Of a DNA stretch of 15,840 nt, positions 1 to 13,339 are shown piece after piece. Every line of letters begins with the position of its first letter. The first letter of the stretch is position 1. The position numbers and the translations under genes were made by a program. Source of the stretch: a virus (taxonomy: Duplodnaviria > Heunggongvirae > Uroviricota > Caudoviricetes); IMG/VR virus record IMGVR_UViG_3300023174_000136, positions 64,001 to 79,840 of that record; one strand, 5' to 3'. The notes beneath the pieces are model-generated. The model was not told the origin of the DNA, ran no database searches, and saw nothing but the letters and a program-made list of their open reading frames with translations.

Positions 1-21
1 TTTTAATATCTAGGAATAACC

Positions 22-168
22 ATGGTTCTTAAAAGTAAGTTTTTAGAAGAATTATTTCAGGAAATTCCCGTTGAAAGTCCTTTAAGAGTCAGAGCGTTTC
101 TGCTGTTTGTTCTTCTGAAATCAGATAATCTTAATAAAGATGATCTGAAAGTTTGGATTTCAAGTTGA
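22..168 (+). CDS. small hypothetical protein (48 aa, MVLKSKFLEELF...KVWISS)
   Basis: Hand-translated open frame ATG22-TGA168 with AGGA at 12-15. Below the ORF-track length cutoff. Confidence 0.5.
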   Translation: MVLKSKFLEELFQEIPVESPLRVRAFLLFVLLKSDNLNKDDLKVWISS

Positions 169-193
169 CAGTCGCTAATTAATCTACTATAAT
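165..193 (+). promoter_or_regulatory. sigma70-type promoter for nadM-Nudix
   Basis: TTGACA (165-170), 17-bp spacer, TATAAT (188-193): perfect consensus. Confidence 0.9.
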
Positions 194-205
194 AAATAAA
201 CATGC

Positions 206-222
206 AGAGAGATAGACTCTCT
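206..222 (+). promoter_or_regulatory. 5' leader hairpin AGAGAG-ATAGA-CTCTCT
   Basis: Perfect 6-bp stem with ATAGA loop, between the promoter and the AAGGAG RBS (240-245). The same loop recurs upstream of nadV. Confidence 0.7.
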
Positions 223-254
223 ACACTAAAATCGCTTCAAAGGAGTTTTGAGCA

Positions 255-1331
255 ATGAATAAAGAATTTGACCTATTGGTCTTTGTTGGTAGATTCTCTC
301 CATTTCACAACGAGCACAAGCGAGTTATTGACATCGCGCTCGAAAAATCAAAAAATGTTCTAGTACTTATTGGCAGCTCGGGCAAAGCTCGGACCATCCG
401 AAATCCCTTCACCTTTGATGAACGGAAGGAGATGATTCGAAGTTCTTTTGATTCGTCTTTCTGTCCGCGTGGCGCCGCCGAAGGCGATGGTCCTCTAATC
501 ATCAAGCCTCTCTATGACAAGACTTATAACGATGCTGCCTGGATTAAACAGGTACAGGATGTTGTCAAGGATACTACGCTTGAAGTTATCAATACCGGTG
601 GCTTTATAGCTTCTGGTTATAATGACGCCAAGGTTGGACTAATTGGTGCAAGTAAGGATGGTACCAGTTACTACCTTAAATTGTTCCCACAATGGAATTC
701 GGTAAACGTTGCCATTGAAGCTGATGTACACGCTACTGCTATTCGCGAATCCTTTTATGAAGATGAAATTGTTTATAGCGATGCTCCACTTCCTGGAAAT
801 GTTATCAACTGGATGAACGAGTTCACTCTTACTGATGAGTGCGAGGCAATCCGCCGTGAGTATTGGTTTGTGAAATCATATAAGCAACAATGGGCAGTTT
901 CGCCATATCCGGTTAAACATGCCACAGTGGACTGTGTCGTGGAACAAAGCGGCCACATTCTACTGGTCAAGCGTCGGTCGGAACCGGGTAAGGGATTATG
1001 GGCATTGCCCGGTGGACACTTGAATGAGTTTGAAACGCAACTTGATGGTGCTATTCGTGAACTGCGTGAAGAAACCAAAATCAAGGTTCCGGAAGCTGTG
1101 CTTCGTGGCAACATTGTAGCAAATCGCACGTTTGACGATCCTTACCGCTCAACGATTGGTCGAGTAATTACTCAGGCATATCATATCAAGCTGCCAGACG
1201 CCGTTGAACTGCCTCGTGTCAAGGGTGCTGACGATGCTGAAAAGGCACGGTGGATTCCAATCAGCGATCTTCGCGAGGATCAGTTCTTTGACGATCACTT
1301 TTTCATCATCGGCTACTTCCTAGGACTTTGA
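255..1331 (+). CDS. nadM: bifunctional NMN adenylyltransferase / Nudix (ADP-ribose pyrophosphatase-type) hydrolase, NadM-Nudix (NatV-like)
   Basis: N-terminal VFVGRFSPFHNEH (HxGH-like), LIGSS, RNPFTFDER and HATAIR motifs. C-terminal Nudix box GGHLNEFETQLDGAIRELREET and GADDAEKARW. Strong RBS. Confidence 0.93.
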   Translation: MNKEFDLLVFVGRFSPFHNEHKRVIDIALEKSKNVLVLIGSSGKARTIRNPFTFDERKEMIRSSFDSSFCPRGAAEGDGPLIIKPLYDKTYNDAAWIKQVQDVVKDTTLEVINTGGFIASGYNDAKVGLIGASKDGTSYYLKLFPQWNSVNVAIEADVHATAIRESFYEDEIVYSDAPLPGNVINWMNEFTLTDECEAIRREYWFVKSYKQQWAVSPYPVKHATVDCVVEQSGHILLVKRRSEPGKGLWALPGGHLNEFETQLDGAIRELREETKIKVPEAVLRGNIVANRTFDDPYRSTIGRVITQAYHIKLPDAVELPRVKGADDAEKARWIPISDLREDQFFDDHFFIIGYFLGL

Positions 1332-1333
1332 TT

Positions 1334-1549
1334 ATGCGTATTCGTGCTGTTATTGAATTTGACATGAAGTTTGACGATGATCTTGTTAGTATTGAAGAAC
1401 TCATGCAGAATTGTAAAAAGTGGGGTTTTGTAAAAGACCCTACTCCCGAGAACTGTATCGCCATGGTTATTAAGGATCTACTTGAGGACGAACACCGTGG
1501 CACAGCGGAGTATGACAGTGCTGTTGTATCTATTCAGGAGATTGCATAA
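1334..1549 (+). CDS. hypothetical protein (71 aa)
   Basis: ORF directly after nadM with AGGA at 1322-1325. ATG1334 preferred over TTG1328. TAATG overlap with the next gene. Confidence 0.65.
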   Translation: MRIRAVIEFDMKFDDDLVSIEELMQNCKKWGFVKDPTPENCIAMVIKDLLEDEHRGTAEYDSAVVSIQEIA

Positions 1550-1755
1550 TGTTTGATCTTTACACGTTTCCTTCTTGTGATTGCAATACTATCGAAGTCT
1601 ATGTAGGCGGAGTTGATGATTATTTTGAGATCGAGGATTGGCTGACGGATAACTATTGTCGTTTCCTAGGTGATGCATCGCCCATGGCATTGTATCATAC
1701 TTTTAAGTTTCCTGATACGGAAACCAAGGCTCGGTTTTTGGAGAGGTTCTCATGA
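1549..1755 (+). CDS. hypothetical protein (68 aa)
   Basis: TAATG coupling to the previous gene, CAGGAG RBS, ATGA overlap with the next gene. Confidence 0.65.
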   Translation: MFDLYTFPSCDCNTIEVYVGGVDDYFEIEDWLTDNYCRFLGDASPMALYHTFKFPDTETKARFLERFS

Positions 1756-1862
1756 AAATCTCTAAAAAGATCCAAGAATTGACAGGTATGGATATGATGC
1801 AACTATTACTAGGTGCCGGACCGTTAATAGGTGTAATCGTGATTCTATTAGGGAGATGGTAA
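1752..1862 (+). CDS. small single-pass membrane peptide (36 aa, MKISKKIQELTGMDMMQLLLGAGPLIGVIVILLGRW)
   Basis: Hand-translated. ATGA overlap upstream, TAATG overlap downstream, GAGAGG RBS, hydrophobic C-terminal half. Confidence 0.6.
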   Translation: MKISKKIQELTGMDMMQLLLGAGPLIGVIVILLGRW

Positions 1863-2209
1863 TGACTAATTTTATGCGCAAGACTAAGAGTCGTTTAACA
1901 GACATCACCTATGGTCCCAACACTCAAGAAGTCGATGATCTACTAGTGTTTACCACCGCCGGTGAATTAGTTAAGCAAGGATATCGCGGCGTAAGTAATG
2001 CATACTGCCACATTGCCCGGCCTGATAAAGAAGATTGGGTGGTTGAACTTGCCCGCCAGCTGCGCCGGGCTCCTGCAGATTTTTATGTTCCTGGTGAAAT
2101 TAAAGTTGCAGAAAATTGGCAAGATCATTATAATCGTGTTTATACTAAAGATGTTCACACTGTACATCCTAGGGTATACGATGCTATGAAAAAGATGAGA
2201 GGATACTGA
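1862..2209 (+). CDS. hypothetical protein (115 aa)
   Basis: ORF-track frame. Start set at ATG1862 because of the TAATG overlap and GGGAG RBS. Confidence 0.65.
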   Translation: MTNFMRKTKSRLTDITYGPNTQEVDDLLVFTTAGELVKQGYRGVSNAYCHIARPDKEDWVVELARQLRRAPADFYVPGEIKVAENWQDHYNRVYTKDVHTVHPRVYDAMKKMRGY

Positions 2210-2210
2210 T

Positions 2211-2381
2211 ATGAGATACGAGTTAAGAAGGTGGACTGATGAAGAGCACATTGACTATGTTGTTCGCTATGCTTCGGATGATTTAGAATCATTAAAGGCA
2301 CAACTTGATCGTGTAAAAACTTCCTCGTCCGAGCCTAATATGAATTACATCGTAGATACGGTCGGTGAATACGATGACTAA
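2211..2381 (+). CDS. hypothetical protein (56 aa, MRYELRRWTDEEH...VGEYDD)
   Basis: Hand-translated. Fills the gap, has a GAGG RBS upstream and overlaps the macrodomain start by 8 nt. Confidence 0.6.
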   Translation: MRYELRRWTDEEHIDYVVRYASDDLESLKAQLDRVKTSSSEPNMNYIVDTVGEYDD

Positions 2382-2862
2382 GTTAATTCATGCCTCGGGT
2401 AATCTTATCGATATGGCAGAACAGGGTCTGTTCAATGTCATTGTTCATGGTTGTAACTGTCAGGTCACAATGGGATCAGGTATTGCGCGAGAGATTAGAG
2501 AACGTCATCCTTCTGCATATCAGGCTGATATTGACTTTGATAAGCCAAGTCATCATCGTATCAGTAAACTAGGTAACTATAGTAGCACGGTTATTGATAG
2601 TGATAGATACATGTTCACTATTATTAACGCTTATACTCAATACCAATTCTTTCCACGGGGCATTGATCATTTTGACTATGAATCATTTGCCTTAATACTT
2701 CGTAAATTCTCTCACGTCTATCCAGGCTATCGGTTTGGATTTCCATATATAGGCTGCGGTTTAGCTGGCGGTAACAAGGAACTCATTGTTGCTATGTTGG
2801 AAGACTTTGCTGAAACTGTATCTGCACAGCATGGTAAAGTTACTCTAGTGGAATTTAAATAG
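2374..2862 (+). CDS. macrodomain protein (Poa1p/TARG1/DarG-like class; ADP-ribose binding or hydrolysis)
   Basis: GNL, IVHGCNC-x3-MGSGIA, IINAYTQ and FPYIGCGLAGG motifs. ATG2374 preferred over GTG2365. Ends in TAG. Confidence 0.88.
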   Translation: MTKLIHASGNLIDMAEQGLFNVIVHGCNCQVTMGSGIAREIRERHPSAYQADIDFDKPSHHRISKLGNYSSTVIDSDRYMFTIINAYTQYQFFPRGIDHFDYESFALILRKFSHVYPGYRFGFPYIGCGLAGGNKELIVAMLEDFAETVSAQHGKVTLVEFK

Positions 2863-3479
2863 TGTCGGACAGTAGACAAGATTTTATTGACTCATGGCTG
2901 ACAGAGATGCCAGTCGGTGTTGGTAAAATTGGACATGGATTTTTTTCTGTAATCAAACACAATGTTTTAGATTTCATTGAAAACGGCATTACTCCTGAAC
3001 AATTGCCCAATGGCTATAAAAGAATCATTGGTTCACAAACGGCTTTTTACTGGCACGAGACTGATGGGGAAATTGATATTGCATGTGAACTTTCGGTTGC
3101 TCCCCAATCACTGACTGTTAATGCTATTGGAAAACCTGCAGAATCCAAGATGCATGCCAGTGATTTATATAACGTTGTTTTACAAAACACAAATGTTTCT
3201 ATTCGCTTTATGAGCGATAAGAAACTTTCTGATTCTGGATATGATCTGTGGAAACGTTTACTATCAATGGGCCACACTGTGTCAGTTTATGACAGTTCTG
3301 CGCCAGGAAATAGTCTTATAACTATGAAAACAGTGGACGATCTTGATAGATTTTATCGAGCAGGTGACAATTCATACGAACGATATCAATTTGTGTTATC
3401 TGAAAGTGGAATGATGTTAGCCGAAACAAGATCATTTTTCAACACAAGAAGAATGCGCGAGTTGTCTGGATTACTTTAA
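2862..3479 (+). CDS. hypothetical protein, possible GNAT-like fold
   Basis: 205-aa ORF. Segment FMSDKKLSDSGYDLWKRL resembles the distal strand-helix of GNAT-like phage proteins. The fold is inference only. Confidence 0.55.
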   Translation: MSDSRQDFIDSWLTEMPVGVGKIGHGFFSVIKHNVLDFIENGITPEQLPNGYKRIIGSQTAFYWHETDGEIDIACELSVAPQSLTVNAIGKPAESKMHASDLYNVVLQNTNVSIRFMSDKKLSDSGYDLWKRLLSMGHTVSVYDSSAPGNSLITMKTVDDLDRFYRAGDNSYERYQFVLSESGMMLAETRSFFNTRRMRELSGLL

Positions 3480-3488
3480 GGAGGTACA

Positions 3489-3752
3489 ATGATGAAGAAA
3501 TTTTTAGTAGAAACCATTTCAATGTTTAGGCACACCTATGTAATTGAATGTGAACATGAAGATCATGCAGCCGACACCGTAGTGATGAATGAAGTGGAAG
3601 AATTTTCACAGAACCATATTGATGAGAATATATTTTCCATTCGTGAAGTCACCGATGCAGAAATTATTCCACTATGTGATCGAGAAAATCCATATCTAAA
3701 AGAATGGACAGGTGAACAGAAAATGTCACTTGTTCATCGAGTAATCTATTAA
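3489..3752 (+). CDS. conserved-looking phage hypothetical protein (87 aa)
   Basis: Strong AAGGAGG RBS, clean ORF. The KFLVETISMFRHTYVIE pattern is reminiscent of large-phage hypotheticals. Confidence 0.75.
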   Translation: MMKKFLVETISMFRHTYVIECEHEDHAADTVVMNEVEEFSQNHIDENIFSIREVTDAEIIPLCDRENPYLKEWTGEQKMSLVHRVIY

Positions 3753-3767
3753 TTATTTTGGAATTGA

Positions 3768-4481
3768 ATGATGCAATATACGATGCCGACTACTCGGCAA
3801 ATTGCCGGAAGAGAGGCAAAACTATTTGGACATGTATTTGAACACCGGGTGTGTGATGTTTTATCGTCACGATTCAAGCAAGATTTTATACACGACGGAT
3901 CTTGCAACACAAAAGTTGATATACGAAGTGAAGATGATACTATGCGATTTAGTGTTAAGAAAACTCCAACTGATCTGCAGGTAGGCTTGATTACTCAACA
4001 AAATTTTATTGAGGCAATGAATATCACAGATAATAAAATTGAACAATTCATATCTGAATTTTTCGGAGGAGACACCGTTGCATCGTTTTCTCGCCACAGA
4101 AAAAAAATAGACGAAATTGATCAGACATTAGTAGACGCATTTGAACAGTTCCTTGATAGTTCAAAAGAAGACATATTCAGAGTTGCAATAACGCATGGCG
4201 GACTAAATCACTACGATAATGTGAACTACATGCTTTTTCCCGATGTTAGGCATGATATTAGCACAATGAAGAAAATCGATTTATCTTCACTATTGGATGA
4301 CATTAAAAAAAATAGCGTCTGGAGATTTAATCCAACTACAATAGATTTGTTAATTGACGGTGTCAAGGTTATAAACATACAAATGTTTGGCAGTGGCAGA
4401 AAATATTCTAATGGTTATCATAGTTTGCAATTTCGAATTGCGTGTGGAAAAATAAATAGCCGACATGTATCGTGGCTATAG
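3768..4481 (+). CDS. putative PD-(D/E)XK type II restriction endonuclease, HinP1I/MspI-like
   Basis: GHVFEHRV helix, KVD...SVK catalytic-type motif, and C-terminal INIQMFGSG...HSLQFRI resembling the IQRKGG...LQFK region of HinP1I-like enzymes. Adjacent to a methyltransferase. Ends in TAG. Confidence 0.6.
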   Translation: MMQYTMPTTRQIAGREAKLFGHVFEHRVCDVLSSRFKQDFIHDGSCNTKVDIRSEDDTMRFSVKKTPTDLQVGLITQQNFIEAMNITDNKIEQFISEFFGGDTVASFSRHRKKIDEIDQTLVDAFEQFLDSSKEDIFRVAITHGGLNHYDNVNYMLFPDVRHDISTMKKIDLSSLLDDIKKNSVWRFNPTTIDLLIDGVKVINIQMFGSGRKYSNGYHSLQFRIACGKINSRHVSWL

Positions 4482-4595
4482 GAGTATATTGTCATTTTGT
4501 ATGAACCGAGTGCAAAATTCCAGGACTGAAGATATCGCAGATATAAGAGAGTCAATGGCACTGCAAAATATTTTAAATTATTTTTAAAACAATAC

Positions 4596-4624
4596 TTGAT
4601 ATAAATCCTCAAGTGTTGTATAAT
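4596..4624 (+). promoter_or_regulatory. sigma70-type promoter upstream of the methyltransferase
   Basis: TTGATA (4596-4601), 17-bp spacer, TATAAT (4619-4624). Confidence 0.6.
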
Positions 4625-4752
4625 TGACATATGTTTTGTGGACTGTGTAATATATCTCACAATCAGTCCTCGGCAAGGCAGAAGTATATCTGATCTTTGT
4701 CCTTGCAGTATGTCACAAATAGGTGATCAATTAAATAACAAAAAGGAATAAC

Positions 4753-6033
4753 ATGTTACAATCGCATCCCACGATGAATCCTCTAATTTTTACTAAACAA
4801 GATTTTTATAATCAATTTACTTTGCCACAGGTATCCTTTGAGGAATTTTGTAGTCGGGTTAGTGTTTTAAATATTAGTGATAAGACTGGGTCTTTTGCAA
4901 TAAGAAGTGATTTAGATTCTTTTTTAGAAAAAGTATGCAAGAAAGATACAGACACCCGCAAAGATCGGATTGACATCTACAAACGGAATTTATATAAAAT
5001 TTTAGTAACTGATGTAAAAGAAACTCTTGCAGAATGGTTTAGGCGATATGGAGAATTAAAGGAACCGTTACATTACTATTTCAATTTGCCTGATTCTAAT
5101 ATCTTAAATGACGATGTGTTTTCAGGAAGAACTAAATCTAAATACGGTAAAATCTGTAAAAATATTAATTTTTCCAATTTTTATAACACGAAGAAGTTAT
5201 ATTTAAATGATAGTGAGTATACCTTTGGGTTGATGAAAGTTATGCTCGAAGAATTCAAATTGCGAAATAGTTTAGTGGGACCCGCATTCTTTGATCATAT
5301 CTGTAAATATGATGGCAATAGCGGCCAGTTTTGGTTAGATTTTATGATTGGTTCTAACCGTGCTAGTATTTTTAATCCCGTGACCTACAAAGGCATTCTG
5401 AAAGAAGTATTCACAGGAGAGACATTGTTTGCTCCAGTGATGGGATGGAATGCATACCAGTTAGGATTTTATGGTAGTAATTTCACTAATTTTATCTCTA
5501 CAGATGTTATTCCCGAAGTAGTTAATAATGGAAAATTGCTACATCAAGAATATTTACAATATCAAAATGACAGCTTATTTGATTCTCCTAAAAAAAATGT
5601 CGAGTTGTATCTGTGTCCCAGTGAATTGTTAGACAAAAATTATAACTTTTCTGAAAAACACGCCGAGTGCGTAGATGCAGTATTGCTTAGTCCTCCGTAT
5701 TTTGATTTAGAAATCTATCCCAGTGACGATCAAAGTATCACGAATTTTCCTGATTATCAATCTTGGTTAATTGGTTATTGGGAAGAAACCGTGAAAATAT
5801 GTGTTAAGGTGATGAAACCCGGTGCAAGGCTAGGATTTGTTATAAGCAACTACTGCAATTTTGATAAAAAAGAGGTCACTATCAGTCAAGACATGCGCGA
5901 TGTTGTAGCAAATCATTTAGAACTTTTTAAACATTACCGAATTCAATGGAGTTCTATATCAGGTACTCGGCAGGCCAAGAAAACTAGAAACGGAAACTAC
6001 GAGGATCTCTGGGTATTTGAAAAAACCGTTTGA
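4753..6033 (+). CDS. SAM-dependent DNA amino-methyltransferase (N4-C or N6-A), SPPY type
   Basis: Atypical motif I LFAPVMGWNAY (residue ~225), acidic motif ISTDV, catalytic VLLSPPYFDLEIY (S313), MKPGARLGFVIS. AAGGA RBS. Confidence 0.8.
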   Translation: MLQSHPTMNPLIFTKQDFYNQFTLPQVSFEEFCSRVSVLNISDKTGSFAIRSDLDSFLEKVCKKDTDTRKDRIDIYKRNLYKILVTDVKETLAEWFRRYGELKEPLHYYFNLPDSNILNDDVFSGRTKSKYGKICKNINFSNFYNTKKLYLNDSEYTFGLMKVMLEEFKLRNSLVGPAFFDHICKYDGNSGQFWLDFMIGSNRASIFNPVTYKGILKEVFTGETLFAPVMGWNAYQLGFYGSNFTNFISTDVIPEVVNNGKLLHQEYLQYQNDSLFDSPKKNVELYLCPSELLDKNYNFSEKHAECVDAVLLSPPYFDLEIYPSDDQSITNFPDYQSWLIGYWEETVKICVKVMKPGARLGFVISNYCNFDKKEVTISQDMRDVVANHLELFKHYRIQWSSISGTRQAKKTRNGNYEDLWVFEKTV

Positions 6034-6058
6034 CACATACTCGCAGAAATAGTAAAAT
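6030..6058 (+). promoter_or_regulatory. sigma70-type promoter for nadV
   Basis: TTGACA (6030-6035), 17-bp spacer, TAAAAT (6053-6058). Confidence 0.8.
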
Positions 6059-6070
6059 ACATGCATAAGT

Positions 6071-6089
6071 CCTACAGATAGACTGCAGG
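6071..6089 (+). promoter_or_regulatory. 5' leader hairpin CCTACAG-ATAGA-CTGCAGG
   Basis: 7-position stem with one A.C mismatch. ATAGA loop closed by G-C and A-T, identical to the nadM leader. Lies upstream of the AAGGAG RBS (6104-6109). Confidence 0.7.
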
Positions 6090-6115
6090 CAAACTACATG
6101 AATAAGGAGTTTATC

Positions 6116-7483
6116 ATGACACACAACCTAATTTTGAATTCAGATTCCTACAAGTTCAGTCAGTGGGTGCAATACCCTCCTAACACGACTGCGATTTACA
6201 GCTACATTGAAAGTCGCGGCGGTCATTATGACGAAACTGTGTTCTTTGGGCTCCAGGCATTCATCAAAGAATACCTGTTGCAGCCTATTACACAGGAAAT
6301 GATCGATGAAGCAGAAGAAATTATCCTTGCACACGGCGAGCCCTTCAATCGCGAAGGCTGGGAATACATCCTTCGTGAGCATGGTGGCTATCTGCCTGTC
6401 CGTATCAAAGCAGTTCCTGAAGGCACAGTTGTTCCTGTTAAGAACATTCTGGCTTCCATTGAGAACACGGATCCTAACTGCTACTGGTTGACTTCGTTCC
6501 TTGAAACCGCATTGCTTCGTGCAATTTGGTATCCTACAACCGTGGCTACTAATAGCCGCGAAATTAAGAAGGTAATTCTTGATGCACTTGAACGTACTGG
6601 TGATCCAAGCGCTATTGATTTTAAGCTTCATGACTTTGGTGCTCGTGGCGTCAGTAGTCTCGAATCTGCTGGAATCGGGGGTGCAGCGCACTTGGTCAAC
6701 TTTATGGGCACTGATACCGTGGAGGCGCTGCTTTTTGCTCGCCGCTATTATAACGCTGATATGGCTGGGTTTTCAGTTCCTGCAATGGAACACAGTACTG
6801 TAACCAGCTGGGGCCGTGAGGGTGAGGTTGCCTCTTACCGGAACATGGTCAAGAAGAATGGCAAGCCTGGTGGTATCGTTTCCGCAGTTTCGGACAGCTA
6901 TAACATCTACGAGGCCTGCCGTTTGTGGGGTACTGAACTCAAGCAGGATGTGCTAGATTCGGGCGCTACTCTTGTTGTTCGTCCTGACTCGGGTGATCCT
7001 GCAGAAGTGGTTTGCAAGTGCCTGAGGATTCTTGATCAGCACTTTGGTCACACCCTTAATGATAAGGGCTACAAGGTTCTGAACAATGTGCGTGTTCTGC
7101 AAGGCGACGGTATTACTCACCAGACTATTCGCAGCATTATCTTCACTATCACAATGGCTGGATACAGTGCTGACAATGTGGTTTTTGGCCAAGGCGGTGC
7201 CCTGCTCCAGATTGTAAACCGTGATGACCAAAAATTCGCCATGAAGTGCTCGGCTGCACTTGTTGATGGTACCTGGGTTGATGTATTCAAAGACCCTATT
7301 ACTGACAAGGGCAAGCAAAGCAAGAAGGGCCGCCTGCATCTTTATAATTCGCCCAATGCAGGATGGATCACTACTAATGTGGCTAGTGAAGGTTTAGAAG
7401 ATCAACTGGTCACTGTGTTTGAAAACGGCAAGCTCATTAAGGAATACACATTTGACGAAGTGCGCAAAAACGCAGCCATCTAA
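6116..7483 (+). CDS. nadV: nicotinamide phosphoribosyltransferase (NAMPT)
   Basis: DSYK, LHDFGARG, EHS, VSDSY, VRPDSGDP, QGDG, GGALLQ, RD-x3-FAMK and KDPITD-x-GK-x-SKKG motifs. Start set at ATG6116, 6 nt after AAGGAG. Confidence 0.95.
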   Translation: MTHNLILNSDSYKFSQWVQYPPNTTAIYSYIESRGGHYDETVFFGLQAFIKEYLLQPITQEMIDEAEEIILAHGEPFNREGWEYILREHGGYLPVRIKAVPEGTVVPVKNILASIENTDPNCYWLTSFLETALLRAIWYPTTVATNSREIKKVILDALERTGDPSAIDFKLHDFGARGVSSLESAGIGGAAHLVNFMGTDTVEALLFARRYYNADMAGFSVPAMEHSTVTSWGREGEVASYRNMVKKNGKPGGIVSAVSDSYNIYEACRLWGTELKQDVLDSGATLVVRPDSGDPAEVVCKCLRILDQHFGHTLNDKGYKVLNNVRVLQGDGITHQTIRSIIFTITMAGYSADNVVFGQGGALLQIVNRDDQKFAMKCSAALVDGTWVDVFKDPITDKGKQSKKGRLHLYNSPNAGWITTNVASEGLEDQLVTVFENGKLIKEYTFDEVRKNAAI

Positions 7484-7491
7484 AATAATCG

Positions 7492-7520
7492 TTGACATTG
7501 AACTAATTTAGTAATATAAT
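7492..7520 (+). promoter_or_regulatory. sigma70-type promoter driving the ncRNA elements / OMP unit
   Basis: TTGACA (7492-7497), 17-bp spacer, TATAAT (7515-7520): perfect consensus. Confidence 0.9.
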
Positions 7521-7534
7521 ACACAAGTTATTAA

Positions 7535-7710
7535 AGGATGATTTCAGCAACCCATTTTAGTATCTTCGGATACTTTCATGATAGGTAACACGGTCACTGA
7601 GCAACTACGGTTGTCTTATACTCTTTACCACCGACCTAGAGGAACTAGGAGTAGGTGTCTCCTCCGAAAGGGAGGCTAGGTTAGTCCACCAATAAAAAGG
7701 CGCATCCTGT
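7535..7710 (+). ncRNA. candidate structured RNA element 1 (closing stem AGGATG/CATCCT, TTTCAGCAAC motif, internal tetraloop hairpins)
   Basis: No ORF. Hairpins with C(TTCG)G at 7559-7574, C(TACG)G at 7602-7613 and C(GAAA)G at 7661-7675. Ends match element 2. Confidence 0.6.
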
Positions 7711-7722
7711 TATACAAGTTTT

Positions 7723-7777
7723 AGGATCCTTACCGCAACTAAAAATTTCAGCTATTATGAAAAAAAGCGGATCCTGT
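7723..7777 (+). ncRNA. candidate structured RNA element 2 (closing stem AGGATCC/GGATCCT, TTACCGCAAC motif)
   Basis: Short copy of the element 1 scaffold, with an internal 5-bp stem and 7-nt loop (7746-7762). Confidence 0.55.
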
Positions 7778-7809
7778 TTTTAACGTCTTAACAAAATGGA
7801 GAATATAAA

Positions 7810-8277
7810 ATGAAGAACGTACTTATCGCAGCAGCCGCTGCTGTTACACTCGCTGCTACTCCTGCTCTAGCAAATGACTTTACCGGTCCCCGTATTGAAG
7901 CAACTGCTGGTTATCAGGATGTAACTAATAACCGCACTAATCTTACTTACGGTGCCAATGCTGGCTACGACATCAAGGTCGTTGGTCCAGTTCGTGCTGG
8001 CGTTGAAGTTGGTGTAGACAATGTGTTTGATCGTCGCAATCTCAATGCAGGCGCCCGGTTGGGTCTTGTGTTGAGCAGCCATGCTCTTGCGTATGCAAAG
8101 ATCAGCTATTCTAACTATCGTGACATTAATCTTGTTAATCTTGACGGCGCTCGTTTTGGCGGCGGACTTGAATTGAAGATTGCAGGACCAGTTTACACCA
8201 AGGTTGAATACCGTCATGCAGACTTCGGTGGTACCAAGTCCAATGATGCAATTGCTGGCATCGGCGTAAGGTTTTAA
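7810..8277 (+). CDS. outer-membrane beta-barrel protein (porin-family/OMP, sphingomonad-like)
   Basis: Ala-rich signal peptide ending PALA, FTGPRIEATAG start, alternating beta-strands, KVEYR motif, C-terminal GIGVRF with terminal Phe. GGAG RBS. Confidence 0.85.
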   Translation: MKNVLIAAAAAVTLAATPALANDFTGPRIEATAGYQDVTNNRTNLTYGANAGYDIKVVGPVRAGVEVGVDNVFDRRNLNAGARLGLVLSSHALAYAKISYSNYRDINLVNLDGARFGGGLELKIAGPVYTKVEYRHADFGGTKSNDAIAGIGVRF

Positions 8278-10510: not shown

Positions 10511-10902
10511 CATCAAAAATAACCTTAATTACCCCTCCTGATTTTTTTGAAAACGATAACTTTAGTATACTGTTGATGGGATTATCCGAAGAAGATCAAA
10601 TTGTGGCCAGCGAGTGGCTAGGAAATAATCCCATCCAAAAAAACATTAACGTTTATTTCTACAACGGAGAAACTGATGTTTCATGGCTTCTATATGCTGT
10701 TGCGAGGACCGATGTAAAGTTCCTAAGTTATAACAACAATCATGCTATATTAGATTTAATGGGTGGATATATTTTGAGTAAGCCTAATAGTTTTTATACT
10801 ACAGGCGATGTAAATCTAAAAATGTTAATAAACCACATAAATAATGGATTCGTGCATGATATTACTGAATTTTTAGAAAAGGTTTTCAATGAACAAGGAT
10901 GA
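10507..10902 (+). CDS. hypothetical protein (131 aa)
   Basis: ATGA overlap with the upstream gene and 14-nt overlap with clpX. Confidence 0.7.
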
Positions 10903-12133
10903 TAAGGACCGTGTCTGCAATTTTTGTGGTAAAGACAAACGTGATGTTGAAACACTAATTATAGGCACTGATGTAGGTATTTGCAGCGAGTGTGTCACTC
11001 TTTGTTCAAAAATTCTTAATGACGAGAAGGTCAAACAATTTCCAAATAATGATATCAGAAAAAAACTGAATCCCAGTAAGATCAAGGATTATCTTGATCA
11101 ATATATCATTGGTCAAGATAATGCAAAGATTGCATTATCGGTAGGAGTCGCTCAACATTATAAGAGAATATTTAATCCTGTTGATACTATAAAGTTGGAT
11201 AAAACCAATGTTCTGTTAATAGGACCCACAGGATGTGGCAAAACTGCGCTGGTTAAACATATTGCAGAATACCTAGATCTTCCAGTTGCAATCTGTGATG
11301 CTACTGGACTCACAGAATCCGGATATGTAGGCGATGATGTTGAAAGTGTCCTGTCAAGATTGCTCACAGTATCTAATGATGATGTTGATCGTGCTCAACG
11401 CGGAATTATTTACATCGACGAAATTGACAAGATTGCCAGAAAGGGAGAAAATGTTTCAATTACTCGCGATGTTTCTGGTGAGGGAGTTCAGCAGGCATTA
11501 TTGAAGATGATTGAAGGCACTATTGCAAGAGTTCCAATGGGCGGAAAGCGGAAGCATCCCAAAGGCGAAATGCAAGATATTGATACGACGAATATCTTGT
11601 TTATATGCAGCGGAGCATTCGTTGGTCTAGATAAAATAATTGAAAAACGTGACAATACCAGTTCTATGGGATTCAATAATCAAGTAATAGATCATTCAAA
11701 AAAGATAAATGTTTATGACGGACACACTACCAAGGATTTAATAAATTATGGAATGATTCCAGAGTTTGTAGGAAGATTTGGGCTCACTGTGAATGTTAAT
11801 GAACTTACTGTCGATGATCTAGTGTCAATTCTCAAGGATACAAAAAACAGTATCATCCAACAGTATCAATATATTTTCAAACTCGACGGCGTAGACCTAC
11901 AGTTTGAAGATGATGCATTGGTTGAAATTGCTGTTAAAGCCAAAGAACTAAAAACAAATGCTCGCGGCTTGAAACAGATCATTGAAAAAATATTAATTAA
12001 CTACCAATTTGAAGCCATGGACCTTGTTGAAAGAGGCTTGAAAAAAATTATGATAACTAAAGATACAGTCCTTAATAGCAAGGCCGTTTTAACATTTGAT
12101 AAAGAGAATGACGAAAAAATACAACAACTATAA
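10889..12133 (+). CDS. clpX: ATP-dependent Clp protease ATP-binding subunit ClpX
   Basis: C4 zinc domain (CNFC...CSEC), Walker A GPTGCGKT, pore-1 GYVG, Walker [12 protein letters not shown] loop, [17 protein letters not shown] docking loop, PEFVGRF, ARGLK. Confidence 0.95.
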
Positions 12134-12635: not shown

Positions 12636-12710
12636 GCGCTCGAAACTGTATTGGTATAGAGAGGCCTCTAAAGCCTGAGGTAGCGGGTTCGAGTCCTGCC
12701 GAGCGCGCCA
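12636..12710 (+). tRNA. tRNA with CUA anticodon (amber suppressor-type), Arg-like body, weak D arm
   Basis: Acceptor GCGCTCG/CGAGCGC, discriminator G, encoded CCA. T arm GCGGG-TTCGAGT-CCTGC. Anticodon arm AGGC-[CT CTA AA]-GCCT, anticodon at 12668-12670. Confidence 0.82.
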
Positions 12711-13137: not shown

Positions 13138-13300
13138 TTATTGGGAACATGGAGTATGGAGTTGTATGCACTGTGGATGGATCCTAAAGTTTGGCCTTGG
13201 TCGGACTGATGTTGATACATGGTGTGACCGATGTCATGGACCACTAGATAAGATTAGAGAGTGCGCCTGTAGCTCAATTGGCCAGAGCAGGAAATTCTAA
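13118..13300 (+). CDS. small CxxC...CxxC zinc-ribbon-like protein overlapping tRNA 2
   Basis: CMHC and CDRC pairs. 20-nt overlap with the upstream gene. Stop TAA falls inside the tRNA anticodon loop. Confidence 0.5.
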   Translation: MTGELHNYWEHGVWSCMHCGWILKFGLGRTDVDTWCDRCHGPLDKIRECACSSIGQSRKF

Positions 13301-13339
13301 CCTTCCGGGTTGTGGGTTCGAGTCCCATCAGGCGCACCA
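13263..13339 (+). tRNA. tRNA with CUA anticodon in the best-pairing register (alternative: distorted Arg-UCU)
   Basis: Acceptor GCGCCTG/CAGGCGC, A73, CCA. D arm GCTC/GAGC. Anticodon arm GGAAA-[TT CTA AC]-CTTCC with an A.C pair at 31-39. T arm GTGGG-TTCGAGT-CCCAT. Confidence 0.85.

Follow-up and report, generated by a model that had tools for sequence, protein, structure and literature searches.

Do the two genes with which a phage salvages nicotinamide adenine dinucleotide (NAD+) share a control element in their mRNA leaders? The question arises from a 15,840-nucleotide (nt) stretch of Caudoviricetes DNA (hereafter the window), which forms the final 15.8 kb of the 79.8-kb IMG/VR viral record IMGVR_UViG_3300023174_000136 (positions 64,001 to 79,840) and in which nadM-Nudix and nadV each stand behind a predicted promoter and a small hairpin with the same loop. 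An earlier reading of the letters alone (the sequence-only reading) took this hairpin for a cis-regulatory RNA coordinating the two genes. Comparative analysis enlarges the element to a leader of ~56 nt with two hairpins, P1 and P2, in which both stems covary, the loop of P1 is nearly invariant, and the start codon lies at a constrained distance. The leader is undescribed, being absent from Rfam 15 and from the literature searched.

The genes behind the leaders are those of phage NAD+ reconstitution pathway 2 (NARP2), in which nadV and nadM-Nudix supply the Nampt and Nmnat activities (bioRxiv 10.1101/2024.02.11.579819). NARP2 rebuilds NAD+ after the action of NAD-depleting defences, for example Thoeris, DSR and SIR2-HerA, and it is costly, since phosphoribosyl pyrophosphate (PRPP) is drained and NAD+ is overproduced (bioRxiv 10.1101/2024.02.11.579819). 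The paper on NARP2 names no hairpin, untranslated region or promoter element, and its model phage, KVP40, lacks the leader. A dedicated, deeply conserved leader on exactly nadM and nadV points to an undescribed layer of control for this pathway.

Two-hairpin leaders of nadM-Nudix and nadV

The estimated completeness of the viral record is 22%, which implies that its source is a jumbo phage of ~360 kb. DNA of the record recurs in metagenome runs from lake and freshwater, and a megablast search of window positions 1–8000 against GenBank phages gave no match. Pfam domains confirm the identities that had been assigned to the two NAD-salvage genes. The nadM-Nudix gene (255–1331, plus strand; 358 amino acids) encodes a nicotinamide mononucleotide (NMN) adenylyltransferase fused to a Nudix domain of the ADP-ribose pyrophosphatase type (CTP_transf_like, 9.6e-09; NUDIX, 6.2e-19), and nadV (6116–7483, plus strand) encodes a nicotinamide phosphoribosyltransferase (NAMPT_N, 7.6e-30; NAPRTase, 1.3e-56). 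The longest open reading frame (ORF) of nadV spans 6098–7483, but the true start is likely the ATG at 6116 and not the first in-frame ATG at 6098, because a Shine–Dalgarno sequence (SD) lies 6 nt before 6116 and homologues align only from residues 3–10 of the longer ORF. The ATG at 6098 falls within the 5′ arm of the nadV P2 hairpin and has no SD of its own.

Upstream of each gene, on the plus strand, lies a sigma-70-type promoter predicted by consensus match: TTGACA-17-TATAAT at 165–193 for nadM-Nudix (12 of 12 consensus positions) and TTGACA-17-TAAAAT at 6030–6058 for nadV (11 of 12). A promoter scan ranked these two as the best sigma-70-type promoters of the region. Together with direct reading, the scan confirmed the shared order that had been described for the two genes, namely promoter, hairpin, ribosome-binding site (RBS) and ATG.

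The full two-hairpin unit occupies 197–254 in front of nadM and 6063–6118 in front of nadV, again on the plus strand, and covariance model R1 matched both copies (58.4 bits, E = 8.6e-11, and 54.7 bits, E = 6.9e-10, respectively), which a whole-genome search then recovered again. The core AG-ATAGA-CT attributed to both hairpins is indeed common to them: AGATAGACT occurs exactly at 210–218 and at 6076–6084, and both P1 loops read AUAGA and are closed by a G-C pair. The nadM P1 (206–222) is a perfect 6-base-pair (bp) stem, AGAGAG/CTCTCT, with its pentaloop at 212–216, and belongs to the minimum-energy fold. The nadV P1 (6071–6089; CCUACAG/CUGCAGG, pentaloop at 6078–6082) is only marginally stable, with a pair probability of 0.28. 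The assertion that the outer stems differ and yet pair is thus fully correct for nadM, whereas in nadV it holds for six of seven positions, the remaining one being an A.C mismatch.

The sequence-only reading had treated this single hairpin as the element. P1 is real, but the unit contains a second hairpin, P2, at 234–253 and 6097–6118, which had been overlooked. In the nadM leader, P2 (GCU-U-CAAA/UUUG-AGC) is likewise part of the minimum-energy fold; it carries the SD GGAG (242–245) in its loop and is followed by the AUG at 255. In the nadV leader, directly read P2 (CAUG-A-AUAA/UUAU-CAUG) presents GGAGU (6106–6110) in its loop and includes the start codon (6116–6118) in its 3′ arm, an arrangement also seen in relatives. 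The RBS sequence on the nadM side is AAAGGAGTTTT at 239–249, then the ATG at 255; on the nadV side AAGGAGTTT at 6104–6112 precedes the ATG at 6116, and AAGGAGTTT and an ATG follow P1 in both leaders.

Motif counts within the window were compared with expectation. Matches to AGATAGACT with at most one mismatch number five in the window against 3.5 expected, and GATAGAC occurs three times against 1.5 expected, neither of which is beyond chance. The third GATAGAC, on the minus strand at 2716–2722 and outside any hairpin, had escaped the eye scan of the sequence-only reading. The 80-kb record as a whole contains AGATAGACT four times, but hairpins behind promoters are seen for the two leader copies only. 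The two window copies alone carry little weight; the significance of the leader comes from comparative data.

Covariation and loop conservation across the family

Searches of IMG/VR seeded with the two proteins gave 18 loci for nadM and 79 for nadV. A hairpin that contains GATAGAC, or a sequence close to it, is present at all nadM loci and, with the exception of L052 and L100, at all nadV loci of at least ~63% identity for which upstream sequence is available, while the stem sequence around this loop is wholly different from locus to locus. Detection of hairpins by regular expression gave many false negatives and was therefore replaced by covariance models. In total, 78 distinct leaders were aligned by MAFFT; they come from IMG/VR phages, Synechococcus phage B3, Xanthomonas phage RTH11 and gammaproteobacteria. 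The phage-only set, aligned by MAFFT without structural guidance, comprises 54 distinct leaders.

In the phage-only set, the two-helix structure pairs 80.3% of cells compared with 53.4% after shuffling, and the covariation score is 0.635 compared with 0.171 for shuffled alignments and 0.06–0.14 for slid partners. The full set of 78 leaders gives 80.1% against 53.1%, and 0.651 against 0.197 (shuffled) and 0.08–0.20 (slid); in both sets, 0 of 500 shuffles reached the observed pairing. Both helices covary, and 14 of 14 pairs show changes on both sides among the 78 leaders. A conserved loop on a variable but paired stem, the pattern of a cis-regulatory RNA that had been suspected from two copies, is therefore present in the family, with stem covariation far above the shuffled and slid controls.

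P1 is a stem of 5–9 bp of free sequence. Its closing pair is almost always G-C, with A-U in two leaders (nadM of locus L072 and nadM of Synechococcus phage B3), and the pair adjoining it does not fail once in 78 leaders although all four Watson-Crick types are used. The loop has the consensus A-N-A-G-A, in which position 1 is A save for one G, position 2 is free (U, A, C or G), and positions 3–5 (A, G, A) are invariant in 78 of 78 leaders. A single-stranded linker of 4–13 nt, with a G content of 5% compared with 22% overall, connects P1 to P2. In this second, short hairpin, the 5-nt loop displays the SD GGAG, and the AUG either forms part of the 3′ arm or comes directly behind it. The distance from the centre of the P1 loop to the AUG is 33–43 nt in every one of the 78 leaders. 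Independently of the alignment, partition functions computed for each sequence by itself predict P1 in 73 and P2 in 68 of the 78, and they predict the SD to be unpaired across the family (median paired probability 0.13).

All model matches are on the gene strand. The two stem pairs adjoining the closing pair include 19 G.U and 0 A.C pairs across the family; since G.U is tolerated and A.C is not, the structure resides in the sense RNA. This asymmetry bears on the alternative that the sites function on the minus strand, for example as intrinsic terminators against antisense transcription into the promoters. The minus-strand folds of the window copies reach −20.7 kcal/mol (z-score −4.5) and −16.5 kcal/mol (z-score −3.2), and the nadM hairpin together with the complement of the −10 region is called a terminator at 226–202, with 10 pairs and a T-rich tail. 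However, a minus-strand RNA would have G.U in place of A.C, and across the family the upper stem lacks A.C pairs while G.U pairs are common there. The T-rich tail is no more than the −10 region read in complement, and bacterial copies do not have it. Moreover, no minus-strand genes converge on the sites, and a fixed AUG distance and an SD hairpin are meaningful only on the plus strand. We consider a minus-strand function extremely improbable.

Gene specificity and distribution of the leader

Enrichment upstream of NAD genes had been named in advance as a check on the proposal. Model R1 gave 104 matches in 98 phage sources, and all 104 lie directly upstream of nadM or nadV, in the orientation of the gene. 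Exactly two significant matches were obtained in each of three genomic sequences: a complete 360-kb phage genome, a 92%-complete 333-kb genome and the window's own record. Searches with model R2 of the whole genomes of Hahella ganghwensis, an Alcanivorax metagenome-assembled genome and Microbulbifer taiwanensis recovered only the nadM and nadV leaders.

The element is not specific to phages, since gammaproteobacterial chromosomes also carry the leader; these carriers include Hahella, Microbulbifer, Alcanivorax and Methylomonas. Among cultured carriers, Synechococcus phage B3 and Xanthomonas phage RTH11 have it at both genes, with the loop GUAGA at nadV of RTH11, and Hahella ganghwensis, Microbulbifer taiwanensis, Methylomonas subterranea and Synechococcus phage B3 are culturable. 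The leader was not found in phages ACP17, Mx1 and KVP40. Escherichia coli phage 121Q and Klebsiella phage RaK2 gave sub-threshold matches only, none of them at NAD genes, and in Cronobacter phage GAP32 an NMNAT-like gene is preceded by a weak match (22 bits) whose P1 loop is different and 8 nt long.

In a NadV tree, all carriers fall into one clade, where they make up 44 of 62 rows compared with 0 of 50 rows outside it. The tree requires 11 label changes as against 35 in shuffles, part of the apparent motif absences being contig edges. An unseeded pattern scan of IMG/VR (GATAGAC, 22–36 nt, AAGGAGTTT), which has little power, yielded at least 80 matches. Among the matches listed, 74 had neither a stem nor a NAD-gene match, four had no stem or just a weak one ahead of unrelated ORFs, and two had a convincing stem, both of which precede nadV.

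Comparison with known regulatory elements

Rfam 15 at the gathering threshold detected two transfer RNAs (tRNAs) only in the whole window. With E-values up to 1, five loci returned nothing on their leaders, and with E-values up to 10, the leaders alone gave chance-level matches only; the highest-scoring of them, to the DUF2815 RNA, reached 13.9 bits where the cut-off is 41.2. A full-text search of the literature found no description of a nadV/nadM leader motif. The sequence-only reading had not recognised the hairpin as an NAD-I or NAD-II riboswitch, and the lack of an Rfam match agrees with that judgment. The leader resembles NAD+-I (nadA motif) and NAD+-II (pnuC motif) in being a cis-acting leader of NAD-metabolism genes, but it does not match their models and differs in architecture, genes and taxa.

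The same reading had also set the hairpin apart from the NrtR operator. That operator is a palindrome of ~21 bp with conserved arms, a GT-N7-AC core and a free centre (PMC2330246), published also as GTTTTCGA-N7-TCGAAAAC (PMC6800001). A DNA-level site could be an extruded DNA hairpin, or it could be bound by NrtR or some other transcription factor just downstream of the promoter. It would account for an inverted repeat of ~19–21 bp close to the promoter, which is of the size class to which NrtR operators belong (PMC2330246). NrtR controls the same genes, nadM and nadV, in bacteria, and nrtR (Nudix plus NrtR winged helix) adjoins nadM in divergent orientation in Hahella and Alcanivorax. The leader hairpin, however, has free arms and an invariant asymmetric centre, the reverse of the NrtR motif, and this candidate was rejected. 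Within a single genome the two sites have different arms, a finding incompatible with arms that co-evolve with a regulator, and the 19 G.U pairs compared with 0 A.C pairs indicate RNA.

In Hahella and Alcanivorax, moreover, the nadM and nadV promoters bear separate 21-bp palindromes with conserved arms, of the ATAGTGGC-N5-GCCACTAT type and of the same sequence at both genes (Alcanivorax and Hahella, L135:1168–1188, L135:2382–2402 and L170:1202–1222). These palindromes sit 45–60 nt upstream of the hairpins and are probably the NrtR operators of the Hahella/Alcanivorax lineage. The probable NrtR site in these bacterial carriers is a DNA box distinct from the hairpin, and the regulator is absent from the complete phage genomes: the NrtR winged-helix domain (PF21906) had no match in the window's record or in its complete and near-complete relatives G001 and G002. 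Taken together, these data make a DNA-level site very improbable. In bacteria, the leader would add a second, RNA-level layer of control atop NrtR.

PyrR-binding loops of Bacillus pyr leaders are purine-rich, AGAGA-like apical loops. The likeness extends further, in that both are leader hairpins of nucleotide metabolism, PyrR is of phosphoribosyltransferase ancestry, and NadV is also a phosphoribosyltransferase. NadV, however, is a type II enzyme with a different fold. PyrR acts through a choice between antiterminator and terminator, whereas no sense-strand terminator follows P1, and the PyrR model (RF00515) does not match the leader; a PyrR binding site was therefore rejected. An intrinsic terminator or attenuator was likewise rejected, as no U-tract follows P1 on the plus strand and the sole terminator-like call is the one on the minus strand at 226–202. 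CsrA/RsmA sites, which call for GGA in the loops of two neighbouring hairpins, were discarded: GGA is present in the loop of P2, but in none of the 78 leaders does the P1 loop have G at position 3, which is always A.

The guanidine-II riboswitch (mini-ykkC) consists of two small hairpins with the same ACGR loops, which kiss on ligand binding. Like it, the leader combines two small hairpins whose loops are conserved while their stems are free and the linker between them varies, and the second hairpin overlaps the SD. Unlike it, the leader's loops, AUAGA and GGAGU, are dissimilar and not complementary, and P2 loop variants occur without a matching change in P1; a tandem hairpin of this type was rejected on these grounds. 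Two further pairings were dismissed as general features. A pseudoknot between the P1 loop and the 3′ arm of P2 (UUUAUC or UCUAU) is available in several nadV leaders but not in nadM or bacterial leaders, and an AAGUCC flank that could serve as an anti-SD is confined to one closely related nadV subgroup.

Proposed mechanism of translational control

The leader has the features of a protein-bound operator: a hairpin with an invariant loop and a covarying stem, and a fixed position beside the RBS, with P2 carrying the SD. We propose that it is a translational operator read through the P1 loop, probably by a protein and possibly by NadM-Nudix or NadV, and we give this proposal, which draws on sequence comparison, an even chance of being right. 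The unit would act on translation initiation, because its distance to the AUG is conserved while its distance to the promoter is not, and it would do so for these two genes in particular, because it stands at a fixed distance from the start codons of nadM-Nudix and nadV and nowhere else. The unbound fold would leave the SD exposed. The invariance of the P1 loop implies a specific reader; acting in trans, this reader would recognise the loop and block, or less likely help, binding of the 30S ribosomal subunit at the neighbouring P2. The thrS operator, the T4 gene 43 operator and the IRE/IRP1 pair, described below, are examples of such a mode. A bound, occluding reader appears likelier than ligand-induced refolding, since the SD is exposed in the predicted ground state and there is no conserved anti-SD.

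The P1 arms differ between the two copies within one genome, and the leader travels with the gene pair among cyanobacterial phages, proteobacterial phages and bacterial chromosomes; the reader would be neither host-specific nor DNA-level. Because the element accompanies the gene pair across hosts, and because no third gene is common to phage and bacterial carriers, the pair's own enzymes, NadM-Nudix and NadV, would be the simplest candidates. An enzyme as reader would provide feedback control of a PRPP-consuming pathway. The sequence-only reading had suggested autogenous control by NadM-Nudix, or a factor that responds to NAD or ADP-ribose, as possible mechanisms. A macro-domain gene of the phage loci was also considered as the source of the reader and rejected: it is common in those loci but absent from bacterial carrier loci, and it is present in motif-free phages.

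Small operators in which a specific loop sequence is recognised include those of E. coli thrS (bound by threonyl-tRNA synthetase, ThrRS), gene 43 of phages T4 and RB69, and the coat-protein hairpins of MS2 and PP7. The leader is similar to these in being a free-stem hairpin next to or within the ribosome-binding region, and its gene specificity would fit an operon protein as reader. It differs from them in its A-N-A-G-A loop, in serving two separately transcribed genes, and in occurring both in phages and on bacterial chromosomes. A eukaryotic counterpart is the iron-responsive element (IRE), which has the loop CAGUGN and a bulged C and is bound by IRP1, an aconitase and thus a metabolic enzyme with a second job, in same-pathway feedback. 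The IRE and the leader have in common an invariant apical loop on a covarying stem in 5′ leaders; the loops themselves differ, and for the nadM/nadV leader a pathway enzyme as reader is hypothetical.

Several observations weigh against a translational operator of this kind. According to Pfam, NadM-Nudix and NadV contain enzyme domains only and no RNA-binding domain, so that RNA binding by either protein would be moonlighting. Some members of the carrier clade have nadM-Nudix without the motif (phage ACP17), and the NARP2 model phage KVP40 is also without it, which means that the enzymes do not need the leader. In the window, the sense-strand folds are weak (z-scores −1.3 and −0.5), alternative folds compete in the nadV copy, and both copies fold better on the minus strand than on the sense strand. 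The model-fitted matches stem mostly from loci found by homology to nadM/nadV, and the unbiased evidence is confined to six whole genomes. Lastly, co-inheritance with one NadV clade equally fits a vertically inherited riboswitch or a constitutive element.

In a minimal riboswitch, the two hairpins together would directly bind one of the pathway's metabolites (NAD+, NMN, nicotinamide, ADP-ribose or PRPP) and thereby alter access to the SD, for which guanidine-II offers a precedent. Conservation in phages and chromosomes across cyanobacterial and proteobacterial hosts fits a ubiquitous reader such as a metabolite; the leader is strictly tied to two enzymes of one pathway; and P2 holds both SD and AUG. 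The bacterial carriers already have NrtR for ADP-ribose-dependent control of transcription, and the RNA could sense a second signal. However, only about six nucleotides are conserved outside the SD, all of them in one pentaloop, and the linker is unconserved. No conserved anti-SD or alternative pairing was found, and the predicted ground state leaves the SD open. The loops of P1 and P2 lack mutual complementarity, and the P2 loop varies independently of P1. Furthermore, in the whole genomes searched, the leader never precedes other NAD genes, in contrast to most riboswitch classes, and the Rfam models of NAD+ riboswitches do not match it. We regard a minimal riboswitch as unlikely. Also quite unlikely is the fuller claim that these mini-hairpins form a new, unusually small riboswitch class that senses a metabolite of the NAD pool and gates both NARP2 enzymes and their bacterial counterparts; if true, it would be the first known case of a phage counter-defence pathway under riboswitch control. 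Identification of the reader would reveal either an NAD enzyme with a novel RNA-binding function or a minimal riboswitch of a new kind.

The leader might instead be a constitutive module with no dedicated regulator, in which P1 protects the transcript or gives the ribosome a standby site and P2 presents the SD, resulting in high and robust translation. An SD in a loop behind a G-poor, single-stranded linker is what a standby or enhancer arrangement looks like, the phage P1 begins a few nucleotides from the predicted transcription start, and other leaders in the same genome also begin with hairpins. Yet a stabilising hairpin needs no invariant loop, and three loop positions are fixed in 78 of 78 deeply diverged leaders. 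A generic enhancer would be expected before other highly expressed genes, whereas whole genomes show it at the two NAD genes only. Some tens of nucleotides separate P1 from the promoter upstream of it in bacteria; what is conserved is the distance to the AUG and not a 5′-terminal position. A constitutive role is improbable in light of these features.

Additional features of the loci

The macro-domain gene mentioned above is located at 2365–2862 on the plus strand of the window and encodes a protein of 165 amino acids of the Poa1p-like ADP-ribose 1''-phosphate phosphatase type (PHROG 335, E = 6.9e-39; PDB 6lfu, E = 2.5e-4; weak match to Pfam Macro). Of the phage loci analysed, 63 contain homologues, which usually lie between nadM and nadV and stop immediately ahead of the nadV promoter. 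Many phage NARP2 clusters seem to have in this gene a third member that has gone unremarked.

At four loci (L005, L007, L013 and L021), a GC-rich hairpin, GGGTGAAG ... CTTCACCC, covers the −35 hexamer TTGACT of nadM, ~60–90 nt before the ATG; it could be the terminator of the upstream gene overlapping the nadM promoter. At L006 (1510–1610), a normal leader is followed by ~100 nt between the nadM start codon and the onset of NadM similarity, which are either an N-terminal insertion or an intervening element.

Elsewhere in and around the window, a permuted transfer-messenger RNA gene lies just upstream of the window, at ~63301–63589 of the record (G000:C1; L003:592–880; Rfam RF04321, 87.5 bits, E = 9e-16), and two tRNA genes are found on the plus strand at 12636–12707 and 13263–13336 (RF00005, 39.5 and 60.5 bits). 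A phage-encoded ClpX-like AAA+ ATPase with a ClpX C4 zinc finger occupies 10889–12133 on the plus strand. Downstream of nadV, a promoter matching the consensus at 12 of 12 positions (7492–7520) introduces a leader of ~290 nt in which several GC-rich hairpins occur, one bearing a UUCG tetraloop (7492–7809, plus strand), ahead of an outer-membrane beta-barrel gene at 7810–8277. This region could be a structured leader or a small RNA.

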